DNA of 63,365 bases, the filler included, from Globobulimina sp. (taxonomy: Eukaryota), in NCBI GenBank assembly GCA_003354225.1. It is 50 parts of 50 records of this genome, joined end to end, with 100 filler letters (N's around TTAATTAATTAA, not from the genome) between each part and the next. Parts side by side here need not be neighbours in the genome. Positions count along the whole stretch, not along the records: positions 2,541 to 3,710 come from PIVH01021777.1; 49 more parts are not named here. One strand, written 5' to 3'. Made by a program: the position numbers and the translations under genes. Each line of letters begins with the position of its first letter. Position 1 is the stretch's first letter. The notes beneath the pieces are model-generated. The model had not been told where the DNA came from, made no database searches, and worked only from the letters and a program-made list of their open reading frames with translations. Of this stretch, positions 682 to 53,218 are shown piece after piece.

Positions 682-1035
682 TTAATTGCATCCGGATCCG
701 ATATTATTACATGTTTTGTATGAATTATAACTGTTGATAATCGTTGTGGAAGCATTTGTTTTTTGCTCTTGTGGTGATAATTTTGCTTCTAATTTTCGAT
801 ACACTTCAGTTTCTGATAGATTTGCAAAGGAATCATCTGATGAAGTGGCCCATGGATAATCATACGCGCTATTTGCTGTATCATTAGATTCCGATTCTGA
901 TTCTGTATAATCAGTGGTTGCATCGAGGAAAGCAGTAACAGGACTTTTTGGGGTAGTTGCTATTGCAAACGATGATGAATAATAACCAGCTTCGCTATCA
1001 GAAAATGTTTTAATTTTGGTTGTATCCGCATCCAT
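682..1035 (-). CDS. Hypothetical Ser/Asp-rich protein; acidic continuation in another frame (486..755), possibly frameshifted
   Basis: ATG-initiated low-complexity ORF; no family recognised. Confidence 0.3.
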   Translation of the reverse strand: MDADTTKIKTFSDSEAGYYSSSFAIATTPKSPVTAFLDATTDYTESESESNDTANSAYDYPWATSSDDSFANLSETEVYRKLEAKLSPQEQKTNASTTIINSYNSYKTCNNIGSGCN

Positions 1036-1170
1036 TGATCTTCAAAGTAAAGTTTTTCTTCCTTTCCAAAATCAAATCACATCCAAATTAAATTCAAAAT
1101 GATTCGCAACCCGTCCACAAACTCTGATGGCACGCCAGACTTAAATGAAGAGGAAAAACTATTATTCTCC

Positions 1171-1270
1171 NNNNNNNNNNNNNNNNNNNNNNNNNNNNNN
1201 NNNNNNNNNNNNNNTTAATTAATTAANNNNNNNNNNNNNNNNNNNNNNNNNNNNNNNNNNNNNNNNNNNN
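1171..1270. other. Artificial contig linker N44-TTAATTAATTAA-N44 (first of 49 copies, every ~1270 bp)
   Basis: Identical 100-nt spacer with a six-frame stop cassette recurs throughout; intervening segments are 1170, 1169 or 1168 bp in descending order. Confidence 0.99.
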
Positions 1271-1540
1271 TTGTTTTTGTTGCCGGATTCAGTTTGTTAA
1301 CAGCTCGAAAACGTTTTTGCGATGTGTTTAAATTTGAGAGATGTTTACAAGCAACGTTTTTTTCTCAGCCTTAACTTGAAATTATATTTGTTGCAATAAA
1401 ACCAATATCTTCTTCTTTCGCGCAGTTTATTATATTGTTTATCTTCATTGCATTATTATTTGTTTATACGTGATTGAGAAATTGCATTTTAATGTGTGAT
1501 GTTTTTTAAGCCCTTTCACTGCAAGTTTTAGGTAGCAAGC

Positions 1541-2440
1541 ATGGCAGTCTTATTGTTTTTATTATCCACTGTTTCCGTAGCATTGTCATTATTAGATGAC
1601 CCCCGATCATACAATACATCATATGAGCCGCGACCAATGACGATTGTGATGAAATTAGTTGAAGAAGCAACTATTGTGTGTATGATTGAAGGCACCTGTC
1701 CTAATAATAGACCATCGTTGGTAAATAATCCTAAACCTTGCATCGATGGGATGTCTAACGGGCTTTACCCCTGTAATAATATTGATTTATTAGGTTATTT
1801 AAATCTTGTTGACTTAGGCTCAAATGCCAACGCATTGGGCAATGATGTCTGGGGATGGAAAGACACGGTTTTAAATCGTTTATATGCATTGACGGGACAA
1901 ACAGATGGATCCTCCATTGTGGATGTAACAGATCCCACGAATCCCGATGTATTAGTATTTATACCCTCCACTTTATCACATTTTGTAAACTGGCGTGATA
2001 TGAAAATATTTAATAATGGCTGGGCCTTTGTGGTGGCGGATAGTTCAAATCATGGCATACAATATTTTAATATGAGAGTATTGATACAAACGGCACGGAA
2101 ACATCGGACTATGCTTAATGTTACAAAACGAATTTACAGAGCTAATTTAAACGATGATGTCGGTGTTGATTCACAAGTTGGCAATGTACACAATATTGCA
2201 TACAATGAACAAACGGGTTTCCTATATGCGGTTGGCTCAAATTCGCAGAATTCTCGAGGTATATACATATCATATATGTCATTGTATATATATTGTTTTT
2301 GAAATGAAAATAAAGCGTTTCTACAGTTAAAATACCATTAATTTAAAAGGTGGCTTGATAATGTATGACGTGGCAATGCCGGACATTACACAGAATCGAT
2401 TGGAGATTGTGGGTGTTTATGCAGAGGATGGCTATACGCA
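1541..2440 (+). CDS. Secreted choice-of-anchor B / LVIVD-type beta-propeller protein, 3' partial; intron 2259..2349
   Basis: Signal peptide; motifs PC.NIDL, GNDVWGW.D, VDVTDPTNP, WRDMK, HGIQ.F, HNIA.NE.TGFLYAVG. Splicing GT(2259)..AG(2349) restores GGLIMYDV...EDGYTH. Confidence 0.85.
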
Positions 2441-3379
2441 NNNNNNNNNNNNNNNNNNNNNNNNNNNNNNNNNNNNNNNNNNNNTTAATTAATTAANNNN
2501 NNNNNNNNNNNNNNNNNNNNNNNNNNNNNNNNNNNNNNNNAGAATAAATATAAAAATGGCTTGTTTCGGTGTAGGATCCATTTGGATCATAAACCGGAGA
2601 ATGTGTCGAAAATAAATCTGGGGATGGGGTTATTTTGTAAATATGCGAATAATTTTGATAATTATAGTTATGGCGAACTGAGATATGACAAATTGTATAA
2701 TGTATCGTTGCATTCTTTATTTAAAACAAAACTATTAAAGAAAAATTTGGATAAATTTAATTTAAAAGAATTTGAATTAAAATTACAAATACAGTTATTT
2801 TATATTTATGATTTTAACGGGAAAATAATTAAAATCAACCAATCCACGATCAAAAATAATATGAATTTTATTGATTAATTGTTGCCTCATTCTTTCTTTT
2901 TGTTCTTTCTTTATTATTTTGTTATTATTTTTAATTTTTTATTATTATTTGAATTGTCATAAAGAAAATAAATATATACATATTATTATTATTTATTGTA
3001 ATAATGATATCAGTACACACATCTTTGTGATATCATTGTTTCTTTTTTTTTGTTTTTTGTTCACATTCTTTTTTTTTATTATTATTTTGTATTAATTAAG
3101 TTCAAATTTTCACTTTTTTTTTTAGTGTAATAACATCTACGGAACACGAGACAACACACTCGTATATATTTCGTACAATTATACTTTTTTACCAAAAAAT
3201 TGAAAGCTGACATTAAAAAACTAGAGCATTTAGTGTTTTGAAGACAAAACGATTTTTAGAGCGTTTATAATGGTAAAAATAATACCAAATTCAGTCCAAT
3301 TATAATACATCCAAGTATAGAATATGAAATATATGACTCAGCCATTGTATTAATAGTCAGACGTTTTTGACGAAAAAAA

Positions 3380-3603
3380 AGCCGACCACTGACCACTGAG
3401 CTACGCTGGCGTCGGATACGCTAGGCCAACTTTATTGGCTGAGCTGCAATCCGGTTTCGGCAAACTTCCATGGCCACCGTCCTGACGCGTTAGACCATAG
3501 TGCTATCCTGACAATTGTAACTGTGTGGTCTAACCCCTAAACGAGAATCATACCACTAGACCATTGGCCTATCGGGTAACAGCCGACCACTGACCACTGA
3601 GCT
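3380..3603 (-). repeat. 23-bp direct repeats (AGCCGACCACTGACCACTGAGCT at 3380..3402 and 3581..3603) flanking tRNA-like fragments
   Basis: Exact repeat seen. Minus strand contains GGCCAATGGTCTAGTGGTATGATTCTCGTTTAGGG (tRNA-Pro 5' half-like) and other A-box-like pieces. Confidence 0.7.
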
Positions 3604-3863
3604 TTTGTATAGTCATATATACACAGGTACAGCATAGCTTGCGTATAAATTCATGATAAGTTTCATGAAAGCAATAAAAACAGAAATCAATAACAAACCA
3701 AAGTACAGTCNNNNNNNNNNNNNNNNNNNNNNNNNNNNNNNNNNNNNNNNNNNNTTAATTAATTAANNNNNNNNNNNNNNNNNNNNNNNNNNNNNNNNNN
3801 NNNNNNNNNNTTTTTCACAAGTTAGATAAAAATAATAATGCAACGCTTGTTGCTTCCGCCTCG

Positions 3864-4833
3864 ATGTACCAGATACTATTACAATTCTGCATTCATCGTA
3901 GCAAACGCATTCAACCGCACCTTATTCAATCCTCAACGGTAAGCACAACGACCACCGCAACGCAAACCGTAACACAGAATGAGGACAACAAAAGAAAGAA
4001 TGAAGAGGATGAACGCAAAGAGGCAGAGGATAAGCAGACCAATCTATCATTTAAACGGAGATGGAGCATGTATATAACCGGTGCGATGTTGGCGGCATTC
4101 TTATACAAAGCGTGCAAATCGCCATCGCAATATTCGACATTACCGTCAGATATAACAAACCAACCATTGACCCTCAGATCCTATCTATTTAGTAATATAT
4201 TGGCAAACAGAGCATTGTCACGCATCATGGCGCCATTGACCGAGAAAACAATACCAATAAAATGGAGAACATACATTTATAAATCCGTTGGTTTATTTTG
4301 GACTGTGAATTGGGACGAATTTAAGCCAAATCTCCAACATTATGCTACATTTAAACAGTTTTTTATTCGACCATTGGAATATCAAAGAACGTTATCTCCG
4401 AACGATTTGATCTCACCGTCTGATGGCAGAGTGTTGACCTTTGGAGAAATCGATAGAAACAATGGCACATTGGAGCAAATCAAAGGCGTTACGTTCAAAT
4501 TACAACAGTTTTTATATGGATATGACAGCATGGATTTGCATCCCAATATGTTAAATATCGAGAATTCTGAGGCGAATAACAAAAATAAATTGTATTATAC
4601 CATAATCTATCTGGCTCCAGGTATCGTATACGAATTTGTGAGAAATTTCTGCGTTTTATCAACATATAATTATACAAAGGCGACTATCATAGGTTCCACG
4701 CATGCGGAGATAACATAAAAATAGATTGTATAAATCATATTGTCGGCGACTTATACCCCGTAAAACCTTCATGGTTGAGGGAAATACCTGGTTTGTTCAC
4801 CTTGAATGAGCGTATTGTGATGACTGGGAAATG
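3864..4833 (+). CDS. PISD: Phosphatidylserine decarboxylase, mitochondrial PISD/Psd1 type; intron 4621..4679; truncated by a chimeric junction
   Basis: F..FF.R.L, SPSDG, EQIKGVTF; spliced YLAPG|DYHRFH and LFTLNERIVMTGKW. Confidence 0.88.
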
Positions 4834-4980
4834 GAGAAACTCTGCGCGAAGTCGGGGATCGCCGCTCGACATATTTCAGCGCCAAACGAAACGGCCAGTG
4901 ATTTGGGTTATCAGGCCGCTCTGAAACTGCTCAATCGAACCCTTGTTCCCACTGAGCAGATCGACTATGTGCTCTTTTGC
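4831..4980 (+). CDS. fabH: Bacterial 3-oxoacyl-ACP synthase III (FabH-like) N-terminal fragment
   Basis: KSGIAARHISAPNETASDLGYQAALKLL...IDYVLFC matches the FabH/KAS III N-terminus; GC content rises abruptly. Confidence 0.8.
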
Positions 4981-5080
4981 NNNNNNNNNNNNNNNNNNNN
5001 NNNNNNNNNNNNNNNNNNNNNNNNTTAATTAATTAANNNNNNNNNNNNNNNNNNNNNNNNNNNNNNNNNNNNNNNNNNNN

Positions 5081-6151
5081 GATCGAATTTGCTCTTCTTT
5101 GCTTAATTAAATGAGTCAGTTTTTCCACCATACGATCCCGACACAGTTCATCCATATTATTAATATCGTCATTATCCTCATTTGTATCCATTAATTCATT
5201 CATATTAATCCGCAACGAATGGAATATAAAACAATGTGCAGTGTCTAAGCATTGTTGGCAAGCAATATATTTATTGATTGCATCCGAATCATTCATTGCT
5301 TTCATTGCCGTGTTTGATGCGAAAAATAATTGCTTATTTTTATTACTATCACGTGAATAATATTCCTTTTCCCGCTCATATCGATCCATTACATAGCAAC
5401 CATTCACATTACACATATCTTCGTCGTTTTCCTTTTCGTTTTCTTTTTTTTCGTCCTCATCAAATCCCAATAATTGTTTATTGTCAATGACATATTTAAA
5501 ATCGCACAGAAATTCGATAAACCCATAATGTGGACATAATGAATAATTTATTAAATCATAAATATTGATATGTGCCCCTTTTTTGTCTGTTTTCTTTAAT
5601 CCAACCCACAAATCAAAGATTTTCAAAACACATTTTGTTCGCTCTAAGCAATGTTGGTTATTATTAATATTTATTTCGTCAAATATTACATTTAAATTAT
5701 ACGTGTCGCCAATGTCAATCCCTAATGTCATTAAATATGAATATATGTACGTATACATTGAATCTGGTGAGACTTTCTTTTGCTGTTTTTGTGCATTAAT
5801 ATGTTTGATATATTGCCCAATTTGACACATTTATCTGTCTTAACTTGTTTTGGTTGATTGCATATTGAACAGTGTGCCACATTCGATTCATTTAAAAATG
5901 TACATATTGTACACGGCCATTTATCATCATTTGGTATGAATTGTTTTTTATTGCCGCATATCTCACAATTTATTACATTTGCTTCATTAAAATAAGTACA
6001 CTTCGGACAGGGCCATTTTTGATCATCATTAAAATTATTATTTATTGATTCTTGCAATTGTTTCTGTATAAAAAAGTAACGTACATATAATTATATATGC
6101 ATCGCCTTTTTGAAACATATAAATATGTCATACATCATTGCCATTTTCCAT
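5081..6151 (-). CDS. Protein with two RanBP2-type zinc fingers followed by an unassigned domain, 3' partial; introns 6133..6064 and 5756..5722
   Basis: WPCPKCTYFN...CEIC and WPCTICTFLN...CSIC; both introns are GT-AG and join the ORF-track frames. Confidence 0.75.
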
Positions 6152-7620: not shown

Positions 7621-7790
7621 AAGACGAGACCAACTGCAAATTACCTGTTGAAATAAGAGTGATAGTATTATTTTTTTGTTTCAGCTCAATGTCCTGATTG
7701 AGGTGGGGTAAACTAAAGGAAAGTGTATTTTCACCTGACCGGAAACGTATTTTTTCTGCGGTCAATGTCTCGGATGGAAGGAAGATCTGC
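7621..7790 (-). other. Unrelated, probably bacterial coding fragment fused to PSD
   Basis: Protein departs from PSD at KRGDVAGE|QIFLP where F.FGGST is expected. Confidence 0.5.
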
Positions 7791-8681
7791 TCACCGGCAA
7801 CATCACCTCTTTTCACAAGCGCCCCTATTTTGCGCAAAGCAATGGGATCATCAACAGCCGGATTCTGACATTCACCACAAAACAATCGATACGAACCAAC
7901 CATCGTAGCAGCAATAACAAACATAATATATGAACATTTATTTGATTCGATCTCAACAATACATCTCTTATTATCTGTATACACATCAATGTCTTTGTTG
8001 ATTGCAATTTGGTTCACCGTATACAATGAACCATCAATAGCTTCAATACGAATAATTTTGCCACTCAGTGGATAATGCCATCTATGATAATCTTGCGGTG
8101 CTAACCTTGCAATTACAAAGGAACCACCATCATATTTACCAATATTTACATTCGATTTTGAACCCACTAAATTCTGCAATGTAAATTCACTTCCTTTGAC
8201 CCAAAATTTCGTAGAATCCAACATTGACTCAAATAGCATCATTCTGCAATCCGCTGGCGATAAAATAATATCTTCATTCGCGTCCAAAATCGGTCGATAT
8301 TCATCCACTTTGATACCACGCGCAAAAAAATCATTCATCGTTTTAAATTCATTCACATCTTTGTACAGCACTCGAGTGTCTAAATTGTGTTGTTTTATAA
8401 AGGAAGGGATATCTTTTGCGGATTGGGACGAATCCATAGCTTTACCTCCTTTCTTGCTCAATGCATATAATATTTGATGAGCGAGTTTACTTTCAACAAT
8501 CACCCGATTTACGTTGACACCATACATAGCTCGGTATAAATTCTTGTATTAATAATCCAGTGCTTCGATCTTTTATTTTAATCACTTTGTTAGTTGCGGA
8601 ATTTTTATGAGTAAAACCTGACATTAAATGTTTGTTATAATCCCCAGCTGCACCTAACTCTCCGTCTAAATAAATTGCCAT
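7790..8681 (-). pseudogene. PSD2: Phosphatidylserine decarboxylase, Psd2/PSD3 type; frameshift near 8525; C-terminal GGST cleavage motif replaced by foreign sequence
   Basis: FKTMNDFFAR, SPADCR, ARLAPQDYHRWHYP, AATMVGS, KRGD..G motifs. Confidence 0.8.
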
Positions 8682-52049: not shown

Positions 52050-53218
52050 CGAAAAAAGCGAGTCGAAGTTAAAGACGTTTTAAATAAAAAAGCACCGTTA
52101 AAAAACGAGGATATTGATGGTAGAAATAAAAGAAAACCGAAGAAAAAATATAAAATCGTGGAAGAGGTGAAAGAATATACATATTATAAAGGAAAAGGGA
52201 CGTTAATCATCGGTCCGGTTTCGTTAATCGGTCAATGGGAATTGGAAGTGGATAAAATGTCGACCGCCAACTTAAAATATGCCCGTTATTATGGTCAAAG
52301 GTCACGAAATATTAAAAAATATTTGGACTACGATATTGTGTTTACAACATATGGTATATTATCAAAAGAAAACAGCCACGATCGAGCAAACCACGTATTG
52401 CATAATATCGAGTGGCATCGGATTATTTTGGACGAGAGTCATTCGATTAAAAATGGCATGGCCTTTACCTCGCTGCATATCAACGAATTAAAAGCCAAAA
52501 ACAAATGGTTATTATCGGGCACTCCCTTTGAAGCACCGAGTTGGTTAGAAAATCAATTACGTTTTCTAGGCATTCAAAATGAACACTTAAATGCGATGAA
52601 ATTGAAGAAAAATCAGTACAATGCGGCTGTGATTAAAATTGTAAAATATATGATGATGAGACATAAAAAAGGACAGCAATTTAATAAGAAATCCATCTGT
52701 GACTTGCCTGAAAAAAAAGAGGATGTGATTTTCGTGAATTTTGATGCCAAACAACAACAATATTATAATAAATTGTATGCCACAGCACGAGAAACATTTG
52801 ATTCGTACAAAGCTACGGATAACGTCGGACGGGGAAGCATTGCCATTTTGGCCTCATTGCATCCAGCCAGACAAGCCTGTTCTGGCTATATCGCCAATAT
52901 GAACGAAATTGAACAACAATTATCCGTCGCGCAACAGCGATTGCTTACTATCCGAGCCTTGGTGGAGGAGCACGGTGATAAAACCAAGAAGGAATTGTAC
53001 GAGTTGGCCCGCGAAGAGGCCTATAACAAGGATGGAATGTGCGTCATTTGTCTGGAGGCGCCGCCCGACGAACCCTTACAAACGCCGTGTCGACACATCT
53101 TATGCGGCGAGTGCATTATCGCCTGTTTGACCGACGGAAATGAGGAATGTCCGATTTGTAGGAAGGGAATGAAAAGAAGTGAATTGAAAATCGCCTATTC
53201 GGAGGAGAAGATTCAAGA
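52050..53218 (+). CDS. SNF2-family helicase with RING finger (Rad5/Rad16/HLTF-like), partial
   Basis: TLII.P.SLI.QW..E, TTYG, W.RIILDESH.IKN, W.LSGTP, C3HC4 RING CVICLE...PCRH.LC..C...CPICR. Confidence 0.93.

Follow-up and report, generated by a model that had tools for sequence, protein, structure and literature searches.

Tailless retropseudogenes, which are 3′-truncated retrocopies of transfer RNAs (tRNAs), were reportedly described by Schmitz in 2004. Short interspersed elements (SINEs) with a tRNA-derived head keep the A and B boxes of that head, after which follow a body and a tail that is either like that of a long interspersed element (LINE) or made of a simple repeat, and permuted tRNA genes are known from red algae. 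In therian mammals, 3′-truncated tRNA retrocopies have been found to be truncated in loops (Noll 2015, PMC5322556), and in a mammalian screen the tailless retropseudogenes carried target-site duplications of 8–35 bases (PMC5322556). Halves of tRNAs covering positions 1–37 have been found fused to LINE-1 (PMC13174262), and two- and three-part chimeras, the latter made by double template jumps, have been reported from Magnaporthe and from mammals (PMC2104539). At the level of genes, tandem arrays of tRNA genes make up >10% of the Entamoeba genome (PMC2652664), and split tRNAs are found in Nanoarchaeum (PMC2237900). The locus that is compared with these systems in the present analysis lies in a window (the whole stretch of DNA that was analysed) of 63,365 nucleotides from Globobulimina sp. 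(assembly GCA_003354225.1), on the minus strand of one short contig (PIVH01021777.1). It is a GC-rich island that, together with a closing run of T, occupies positions 3373–3603 (231 bases) and in which four tRNA-like pieces follow one another, separated in part by two spacers. No piece is able to fold as a tRNA, and the island is no gene of a known kind.

The tRNA-like pieces of the island

Reference tRNAs were collected by scanning a metagenome collection with a 25-base word from the tRNA-Pro piece of the island, which gave 80 matches in 79 loci. ARAGORN predicted 829 tRNAs in these loci, from which 19 isotype profiles were built, and the profiles were run with nhmmer on the element and on 300 dinucleotide-preserving shuffles of it; the best score reached by any shuffle with any isotype model was 9.2 bits. 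The clearest of the four pieces (piece 2, 3534–3569, minus strand) corresponds to positions 2–38 of tRNA-Pro(AGG) with no mismatch. It scores 31.4 bits on the Pro profile at 3569–3535 (0/300 shuffles), is identical in 35 of 35 bases to positions 2–36 of a metagenome tRNA-Pro(AGG) when 3569–3535 is compared by BLAST, and ends right at the 3′ edge of the anticodon loop. A preliminary description of this DNA, made from the sequence alone, had recognized here a tRNA-Pro 5′ half that runs up to the AGG anticodon, and that reading is supported. All 80 matches of the 25-base word, in all 79 loci, continue as ordinary tRNA-Pro and none as a mosaic.

The Pro piece overlaps by the two bases GG the piece that precedes it on the minus strand (piece 1, 3568–3603), which is Asn(GUU)-like and spans about positions 9–46, that is, the D arm, the anticodon arm and the start of the variable loop, without the 5′ acceptor strand. 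The Asn profile gives it 17.7 bits at 3603–3560 (0/300 shuffles), 3588–3568 is identical to positions 26–46 of Asn(GUU) in 20 of 21 bases by BLAST, and the anticodon loop reads CTGTTAC; the D stem is disrupted by a 7-base tandem duplication. The last piece on the minus strand (piece 4, 3380–3410) is a tRNA 5′ part covering positions 1–33, in which a Thr(CGU)-like acceptor strand is followed by an Asn-like D arm and stem as in piece 1. It scores 10.8 bits at 3410–3387, as a generic 5′ end that fits the Thr model best (0/300 shuffles), its first 11 bases are identical to those of the Thr(CGU) gene of metagenome locus L031, and it stops after U33. The preliminary description had called this last one a tRNA 5′ end, as it proves to be, but it missed that the first copy of the direct repeat dealt with below and the next 13 bases are the D and anticodon arms of a tRNA-Asn(GUU).

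The remaining piece (piece 3, 3479–3512, minus strand) is a diverged 5′ part of class II (Ser/Leu) type, about positions 1–32, and was placed by global alignment; it ends just inside the anticodon loop. When 3512–3479 was aligned globally to all tRNA heads, the best match was Ser(UGA) positions 1–34 with a score of 16, a value reached by 0/200 shuffles (mean 7.95, maximum 15). By profile the piece is weak, with 2.7 bits on the Leu model, a score that 61/300 shuffles match with some model. The earlier label of a Leu-like tRNA start is therefore widened to class II (Ser/Leu)-like and diverged. Judged from their sequence, three of the pieces are tRNA-derived beyond what shuffled controls give; comparison with such controls had been proposed in the preliminary description, and these three stand clearly above them and the fourth narrowly so.

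The two spacers are not tRNA-like above the null. The best tRNA score of spacer x (3513–3533, minus strand, 21 bases) was equalled by 45/60 shuffles, and spacer y (3411–3478, minus strand, 68 bases), tested as two overlapping parts, gave best scores reached by 41/60 and 22/60; in the same test the Pro piece was matched by 0/60 and two flank controls by 47/60 and 60/60. Both hairpins named in the preliminary description are present in the element. A small hairpin at 3439–3425 lies inside spacer y, and a 9-base inverted repeat has one arm at 3534–3526 (spacer x plus position 3534) and the other at 3497–3489, in the D loop of piece 3.

The first piece is tied to the last by a direct repeat of 23 bases without a mismatch. 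Its copies lie at 3603–3581 (within piece 1) and 3402–3380 (within piece 4) on the minus strand, are spaced by 201 bases, and can be extended to 26 bases with one mismatch. The 23-mer has just two matches in the whole window at up to three mismatches, two matches were seen in 0/100 shuffles, and copy 1 holds the internal 7-base tandem duplication, all of which bears out the exact and internally duplicated repeat reported before. Copy 1 has a downstream continuation and copy 2 an upstream one, which is the opposite of the arrangement expected if an insert in a tRNA gene were flanked by a target-site duplication, and which fits either a 201-base tandem or permuted unit or one template used twice. 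On this sequence evidence the repeat is the stretch (positions 9–33) common to two pieces of one Asn-like source and not a target-site duplication. Only 1.13 units of the 201-base period are present, and a contig built from short reads could be a collapsed array. The element closes with a run of eight T (3373–3380, minus strand), the first of which is the last base of repeat copy 2, and this is the sole run of four or more T on the sense strand; a terminal T run had been announced before, with about nine T where eight are counted. A T5/A8 inverted repeat lies at 3363–3380, and one 5-base word occurs at both outer borders (3607–3603 and 3369–3365), which may be coincidence, the DNA being AT-rich, or else a target-site duplication of very small size.

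Tests for a working gene gave little. ARAGORN found no tRNA gene in the whole window, and Rfam gave no match at the gathering threshold; at a loose threshold its only match was tRNA, at 14.8 bits (gathering 29) over 3548–3611, and a run on the whole window had no match within the element up to E = 1. Given the class II piece alone, or the perfect Pro piece alone, Rfam again returned no match, so that its model is blind even to a true Pro half and its silence on halves is uninformative. Patterns for the A and B boxes were drawn from consensus sequences: no B box was matched inside 3373–3612, and the full pattern had no match across the window, in line with the preliminary description, which had seen no T arm or B box, whilst two A-box-like words, at 3563–3553 and 3403–3393, are among the window's 10. 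A TATA-like run is situated 13–24 bases upstream of the island. The 231-base RNA folds at −72.9 kcal/mol, compared with −70.2 ± 4.7 kcal/mol for its shuffles (z = −0.59), and 48 of 200 shuffles equal it. No matching tRNA 3′ half was found in the window by ARAGORN or by the box patterns. As for a tRNA-derived SINE, a head with both A and B boxes was not found (there is no B box), and the element ends in T8 and not in an A-rich, simple-repeat or LINE-related tail.

Related sequence in tRNA gene arrays and in an independent sample

In the 79 metagenome loci the tRNA genes form dense arrays, as many as 15 of them within 1.6 kb, and their order resembles that of the pieces. On the same strand, Asn(GUU) stands next upstream of Pro(AGG) in 18/37 cases and Leu(CAG) next upstream of Asn(GUU) in 19/30, Leu(CAG) is next downstream of Pro(AGG) in 9/48, and Ser(UGA) and Thr(CGU) lie a few genes off in the same clusters; one such cluster, L031, has the Thr(CGU) gene that shares its acceptor strand with piece 4. 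These counts are not independent, for the loci were picked by the Pro word, many are near-copies of one another, and the owners of the arrays are uncharacterized. The cyclic order of the mosaic (Asn, Pro, class II, Asn) is the order of neighbours that is most frequent in the arrays, and the chained pieces look, by their sequence, like neighbours from one tRNA gene cluster and not like a random draw of abundant halves. The loci (L001–L079) also share a recurring order of their own, Lys, Thr, Glu, Ser, Leu, Asn, Pro, Ala, Thr, Gly, Lys, Phe, and their tRNAs are eukaryote-like. In the arrays of L055 and L062, ARAGORN predicts a tRNA with the anticodon CUA (labelled Pyl) that would read the TAG stop codon, which hints at a changed genetic code or at a suppressor there.

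Copies of the mosaic itself were sought in several collections. Exact scans with the 23-mer gave no match in metagenome_contigs, genome_contigs or viral_contigs, and exact scans with the joint between the Asn and Pro pieces gave none in genome_contigs or viral_contigs; a 46-residue translation across the island found no further copy among predicted proteins. BLAST of the contig against the 79 metagenome loci gave nothing past the tRNA pieces, and against the rest of the window it gave no match, so that the mosaic is single-copy within the 50 contigs. A literature search for foraminiferal tRNA SINEs had no relevant title among the matches listed, and one on tRNA-derived satellites led to a paper that has no bearing on the island.

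Sequencing data came from two runs (X1 and X2) of one independent sample, coded organism A, which alone contain a small share (0.08) of the words, with no RNA data set listed as sharing them, and their contigs were compared with the locus over 3300–3710. The downstream flank (3301–3369) is common to contigs of both runs without a mismatch (records 1 and 8). It is found, as 3301–3368/3369, in contigs of 675 and 1357 bases, and the match ends 4 bases from the T run, exactly at the T5/A8 inverted repeat; the X1 contig (record 1) carries 37 further letters beyond the compared part, and the X2 contig simply ends there. Record 3 of X1 matches 3534–3563 exactly and continues as the 3′ strand of the anticodon stem, the variable loop and the T arm, which means that a normal tRNA-Pro(AGG) with the same 5′ half exists in X1, the run that also has the contig's flank. 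The Asn/Pro joint was found in X1 records 6 (3545–3577) and 7 (3550–3577), with one mismatch each, and the agreement of record 6 with the Pro sequence ends near position 28. In X1 record 2 (3399–3431, 33 bases, one mismatch), the last 21 bases of spacer y run on into piece 4 as they do in the mosaic, until the record diverges near position 12 of that piece. That two joints are found again in other contexts of another sample speaks for a group of related variants and makes a single stray chimera less likely. A single-copy element with reads that break at each joint had been named earlier as the sign of an amplification chimera; as to two of the joints, and to that half only, X1 of this other sample speaks for the element. 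Cover by X1 and X2 is absent at 3370–3398, 3432–3533 and 3578–3710, and none of their contigs spans the island; nothing is concluded from these blanks.

Mean word depth was 750–5400 on the tRNA-like records and 7 on the flank, a difference that hints at a high copy number of mosaic-related sequence, with the provisos that such depth sums over organisms and is not a copy number, and that the Pro words are common to many marine eukaryotes. The same flank is at depth 7 in one run and 47 in the other, the deeper run being the smaller one, which suggests uneven amplification and keeps an artefact alive as an explanation.

The setting of the island was overlooked in the preliminary description, which did not see that the window is a chain of contigs or that a contig end is near. 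Some 50 contigs, each roughly 1170 bases long and arranged by length, make up the window and are chained by 100-base linkers, each linker consisting of 44 N, a fixed 12-base stop-codon spacer and 44 N (for example, 3711–3810); features that cross a linker are not real, and long ‘ORFs’ (open reading frames) that enter linkers are cut genes. By the positions of the N runs and the fixed spacer, the host contig is 2541–3710 (1170 bases), and the mosaic lies 107 bases from its end. This contig has a GC content of 29%; an open frame enters from its left edge and stops at 2878, and the remainder to the right of that is AT-rich and non-coding. The 223-base island without the T run (3381–3603) has 53.4% GC, against 23.1% at 2541–3372 and 29.9% at 3604–3710, and the GC-rich island in AT-rich DNA that was first noticed is thereby confirmed. 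Elsewhere in the window, a frame at 7621–8548 (minus strand) is phosphatidylserine-decarboxylase-like, with marine sequences as its best relatives at 60% identity and Reticulomyxa filosa as the best named match at 48%, which suggests that the host is probably a poorly sampled AT-rich protist, perhaps a rhizarian; a frame at 52050–53216 (plus strand), cut by both ends of its contig, has an SNF2-related helicase domain followed by a RING finger, as in Rad5/Rad16-like proteins.

Origin of the island

The explanation that is tentatively favoured here, and with low confidence, is that the island is a dead tRNA-derived mosaic made by polymerase template jumps and not a gene. A polymerase, most likely a retroelement's reverse transcriptase, would have taken as templates the 5′ parts of several tRNAs or pre-tRNAs that stem from one gene neighbourhood, these being a Thr/Asn-like pseudo-tRNA (used twice), a tRNA-Pro(AGG) and a class II tRNA of Ser/Leu type; it would have jumped from template to template at 2–7 bases of homology, and the finished chain would then have been inserted into AT-rich intergenic DNA. 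We infer that an RNA intermediate, reverse transcription, integration and a repeat family of related copies were involved. Three of the four pieces begin at tRNA position 1 or 2, and the pieces end at about 46, 38, 32 and 33, in every case in a loop or at the edge of one; they are, in other words, 5′-complete and 3′-truncated segments that end in single-stranded regions, as tailless and chimeric tRNA retrocopies are. The 5′-most piece alone is 5′-truncated, which is expected for the last template copied. Homologies of 2–7 bases are seen at the joints (GG between Asn and Pro, and the 7-base duplication inside the repeat). The loop-truncated retrocopies, the LINE-1-fused halves and the three-part chimeras cited above are precedents (PMC5322556; PMC13174262; PMC2104539), and by the recurrence of two joints in X1 the mosaic is more than a single stray molecule. 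Retroelements appear to be present in the assembly, as a frame with an RVT_1 domain (64.8 bits) fills another contig (31747–32913, minus strand) that is GC-richer than its neighbours. The preliminary description had listed the capture of tRNA 5′ halves among its readings, and that one remains live and comes close to the explanation favoured here. Several observations nevertheless weigh against template jumps. A repeat search found no flanking target-site duplication of at least 8 bases, only the internal 23-mer, and the element lacks both an A-rich tail and a LINE part. The Asn-like source departs from a true tRNA in its broken D stem and its Thr-like acceptor, and spacers x and y, together 89 of 231 bases, have no identified source. 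The related X1 records break inside stems (Pro at about 28, piece 4 at about 12) and not in loops, and the array order of the pieces is not predicted by random capture, so that an origin at the level of DNA fits that order better.

Such a DNA-level origin, which is possible although rather unlikely, would make the island a remnant of a collapsed and partly duplicated tRNA array (class II Ser/Leu, Asn, Pro), or a full unit and a further 13% of a satellite of 201 bases that arose from such an array; the 3′ halves would have been lost through short-homology deletions, and the direct repeat would mark where the next unit begins. The order of the pieces agrees with the neighbour counts of the arrays, one of these clusters contains a Thr(CGU) gene whose acceptor strand is that of piece 4, the continuations of the repeat copies fit a tandem or permuted unit and not a target-site duplication, and the X1 records share joints and differ beyond them as variants of a repeat family do; tandem arrays on the scale of those in Entamoeba give it a precedent. 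Yet scarcely more than one unit is present, the counts come from uncharacterized organisms picked by the Pro word and, with many near-copies among the loci, are not independent, and the window's 50 contigs hold no tRNA gene. Random deletions would not be expected to begin at position 1–2 and to end in loops, and no similarity of either spacer to array spacers or to 3′ halves was found. Compared with template jumping between RNAs, the DNA-level route is the better account of the order and the permuted repeat, and the worse one of the starts at position 1–2 and the ends in loops. An in vitro chimera is likewise rated as unlikely, although it has to be kept in view: a polymerase could have switched templates while the whole genome or the cDNA of a tiny sample was being amplified, or short fragments could have been ligated. 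The assembly is very fragmented (contigs of roughly 1.2 kb), the flank depths of 7 and 47, deeper in the smaller run, suggest uneven amplification, and the contigs of both runs cease to match at 3368/3369, beside the T5/A8 inverted repeat. A letter-perfect Pro piece is either young or not genomic, and the 2–7-base joint homologies and one antisense snippet are what polymerase jumps leave. At least five jumps in 231 bases are, however, far more than amplification chimeras usually have, two joints recur in several records of a different sample, the Asn-like source is a diverged pseudo-tRNA used twice and not an abundant true tRNA, and the joint homologies are too short to mislead an assembler.

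It is doubtful, though conceivable, that the island belongs to a high-copy repeat family of a rhizarian-like protist and represents a multi-headed tRNA-derived element. Its unit of ~200 bases would then compact a conserved tRNA gene neighbourhood (Ser/Leu, Asn, Pro and a Thr-like acceptor) whilst keeping only the 5′ halves that bear A boxes; it would have spread as a satellite or by retroposition, and might be transcribed by RNA polymerase III (Pol III) as far as T8, giving RNAs that resemble tRNA 5′ halves. That the island is a working Pol III unit, either a non-coding RNA or the source copy of a SINE, of about 200–230 bases with an A box and TATA-like start and a T8 end, is improbable. Its two A-box-like words among the window's 10, the TATA-like run upstream, the lack of any run of four or more T ahead of the terminal T8 and a GC-rich island in AT-rich DNA, like the Pol III genes of such genomes, all agree with a unit of this kind; but the absence of an inner T4 is estimated to be roughly an even chance at this composition, and TATA-like words are frequent in AT-rich DNA. 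There is no B box and no Rfam family, the fold is matched by about a quarter of the shuffles, and no conservation was seen, the repeat and the Asn/Pro joint having no match in the collections scanned. Of the inference first drawn from this DNA, the chain of tRNA 5′ parts without T arms has stood up to the shuffle controls, but the SINE or Pol III gene, which would need a B box or some other promoter as well as copies or an RNA, is not supported, given the same absence of a B box, of an Rfam family and of a distinctive fold. A last reading is that of split or permuted tRNA genes, the RNAs of which would be united with 3′ halves encoded elsewhere; in its favour, every piece is a 5′ part with its end in the anticodon loop or close to it. 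This is highly improbable, and the earlier mention of split-tRNA pieces is not supported: no 3′ half, T arm or B box was found in the window, the pieces abut and have no leaders, the D stem of the Asn-like source is disrupted, and X1, which shares the contig's flank without a mismatch, also contains a complete and ordinary tRNA-Pro(AGG) whose 5′ half is that of piece 2.

Comparison with known systems

If the island is real, the capture and retroposition of tRNA 5′ halves, documented mainly in mammals, would reach a distant protist, and would do so in a more extreme form, with four pieces chained in the order of a tRNA array; it could then show the birth of tRNA-derived repeats. If it is an amplification chimera, it serves as a warning about tRNA-like mosaics in assemblies from tiny samples. 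In either case the island is not to be annotated as a tRNA gene or a pseudogene cluster before checks at the level of reads have been made.

Among known systems, tRNA-derived SINEs are like the island in being tRNA-related, non-coding, provided with an A box and possibly multi-copy; the island differs from them in having no B box, several heads and a T run. In split and permuted tRNA genes, halves are encoded apart, as here, whereas those genes have matching 3′ halves and joining signals, and none were seen here. The tRNA arrays of Entamoeba (PMC2652664) and of the marine metagenome share with the island the presence of several tRNA sequences in a short repeated unit, and in the metagenome arrays the gene order matches the order of the pieces; the arrays hold whole foldable genes and the island only 5′ parts. 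The tailless retropseudogenes of mammals are single pieces made by LINE-1 and flanked by duplications of 8–35 bases (PMC5322556), whereas the island has at least four chained pieces, no such duplication and a protist host. The chimeric retrocopies are head-to-tail fusions of different cellular RNAs, as is seen here, and their typical 1–37 half is close to the Pro piece at positions 2–38; they end in the 3′ part of a LINE or SINE and have two or three components, whilst the island has four tRNA-like pieces and two spacers and no LINE part (PMC13174262; PMC2104539). The island is best filed as a tRNA-derived dead copy of a known sort, the unusual part of which is that several pieces are chained in array order.

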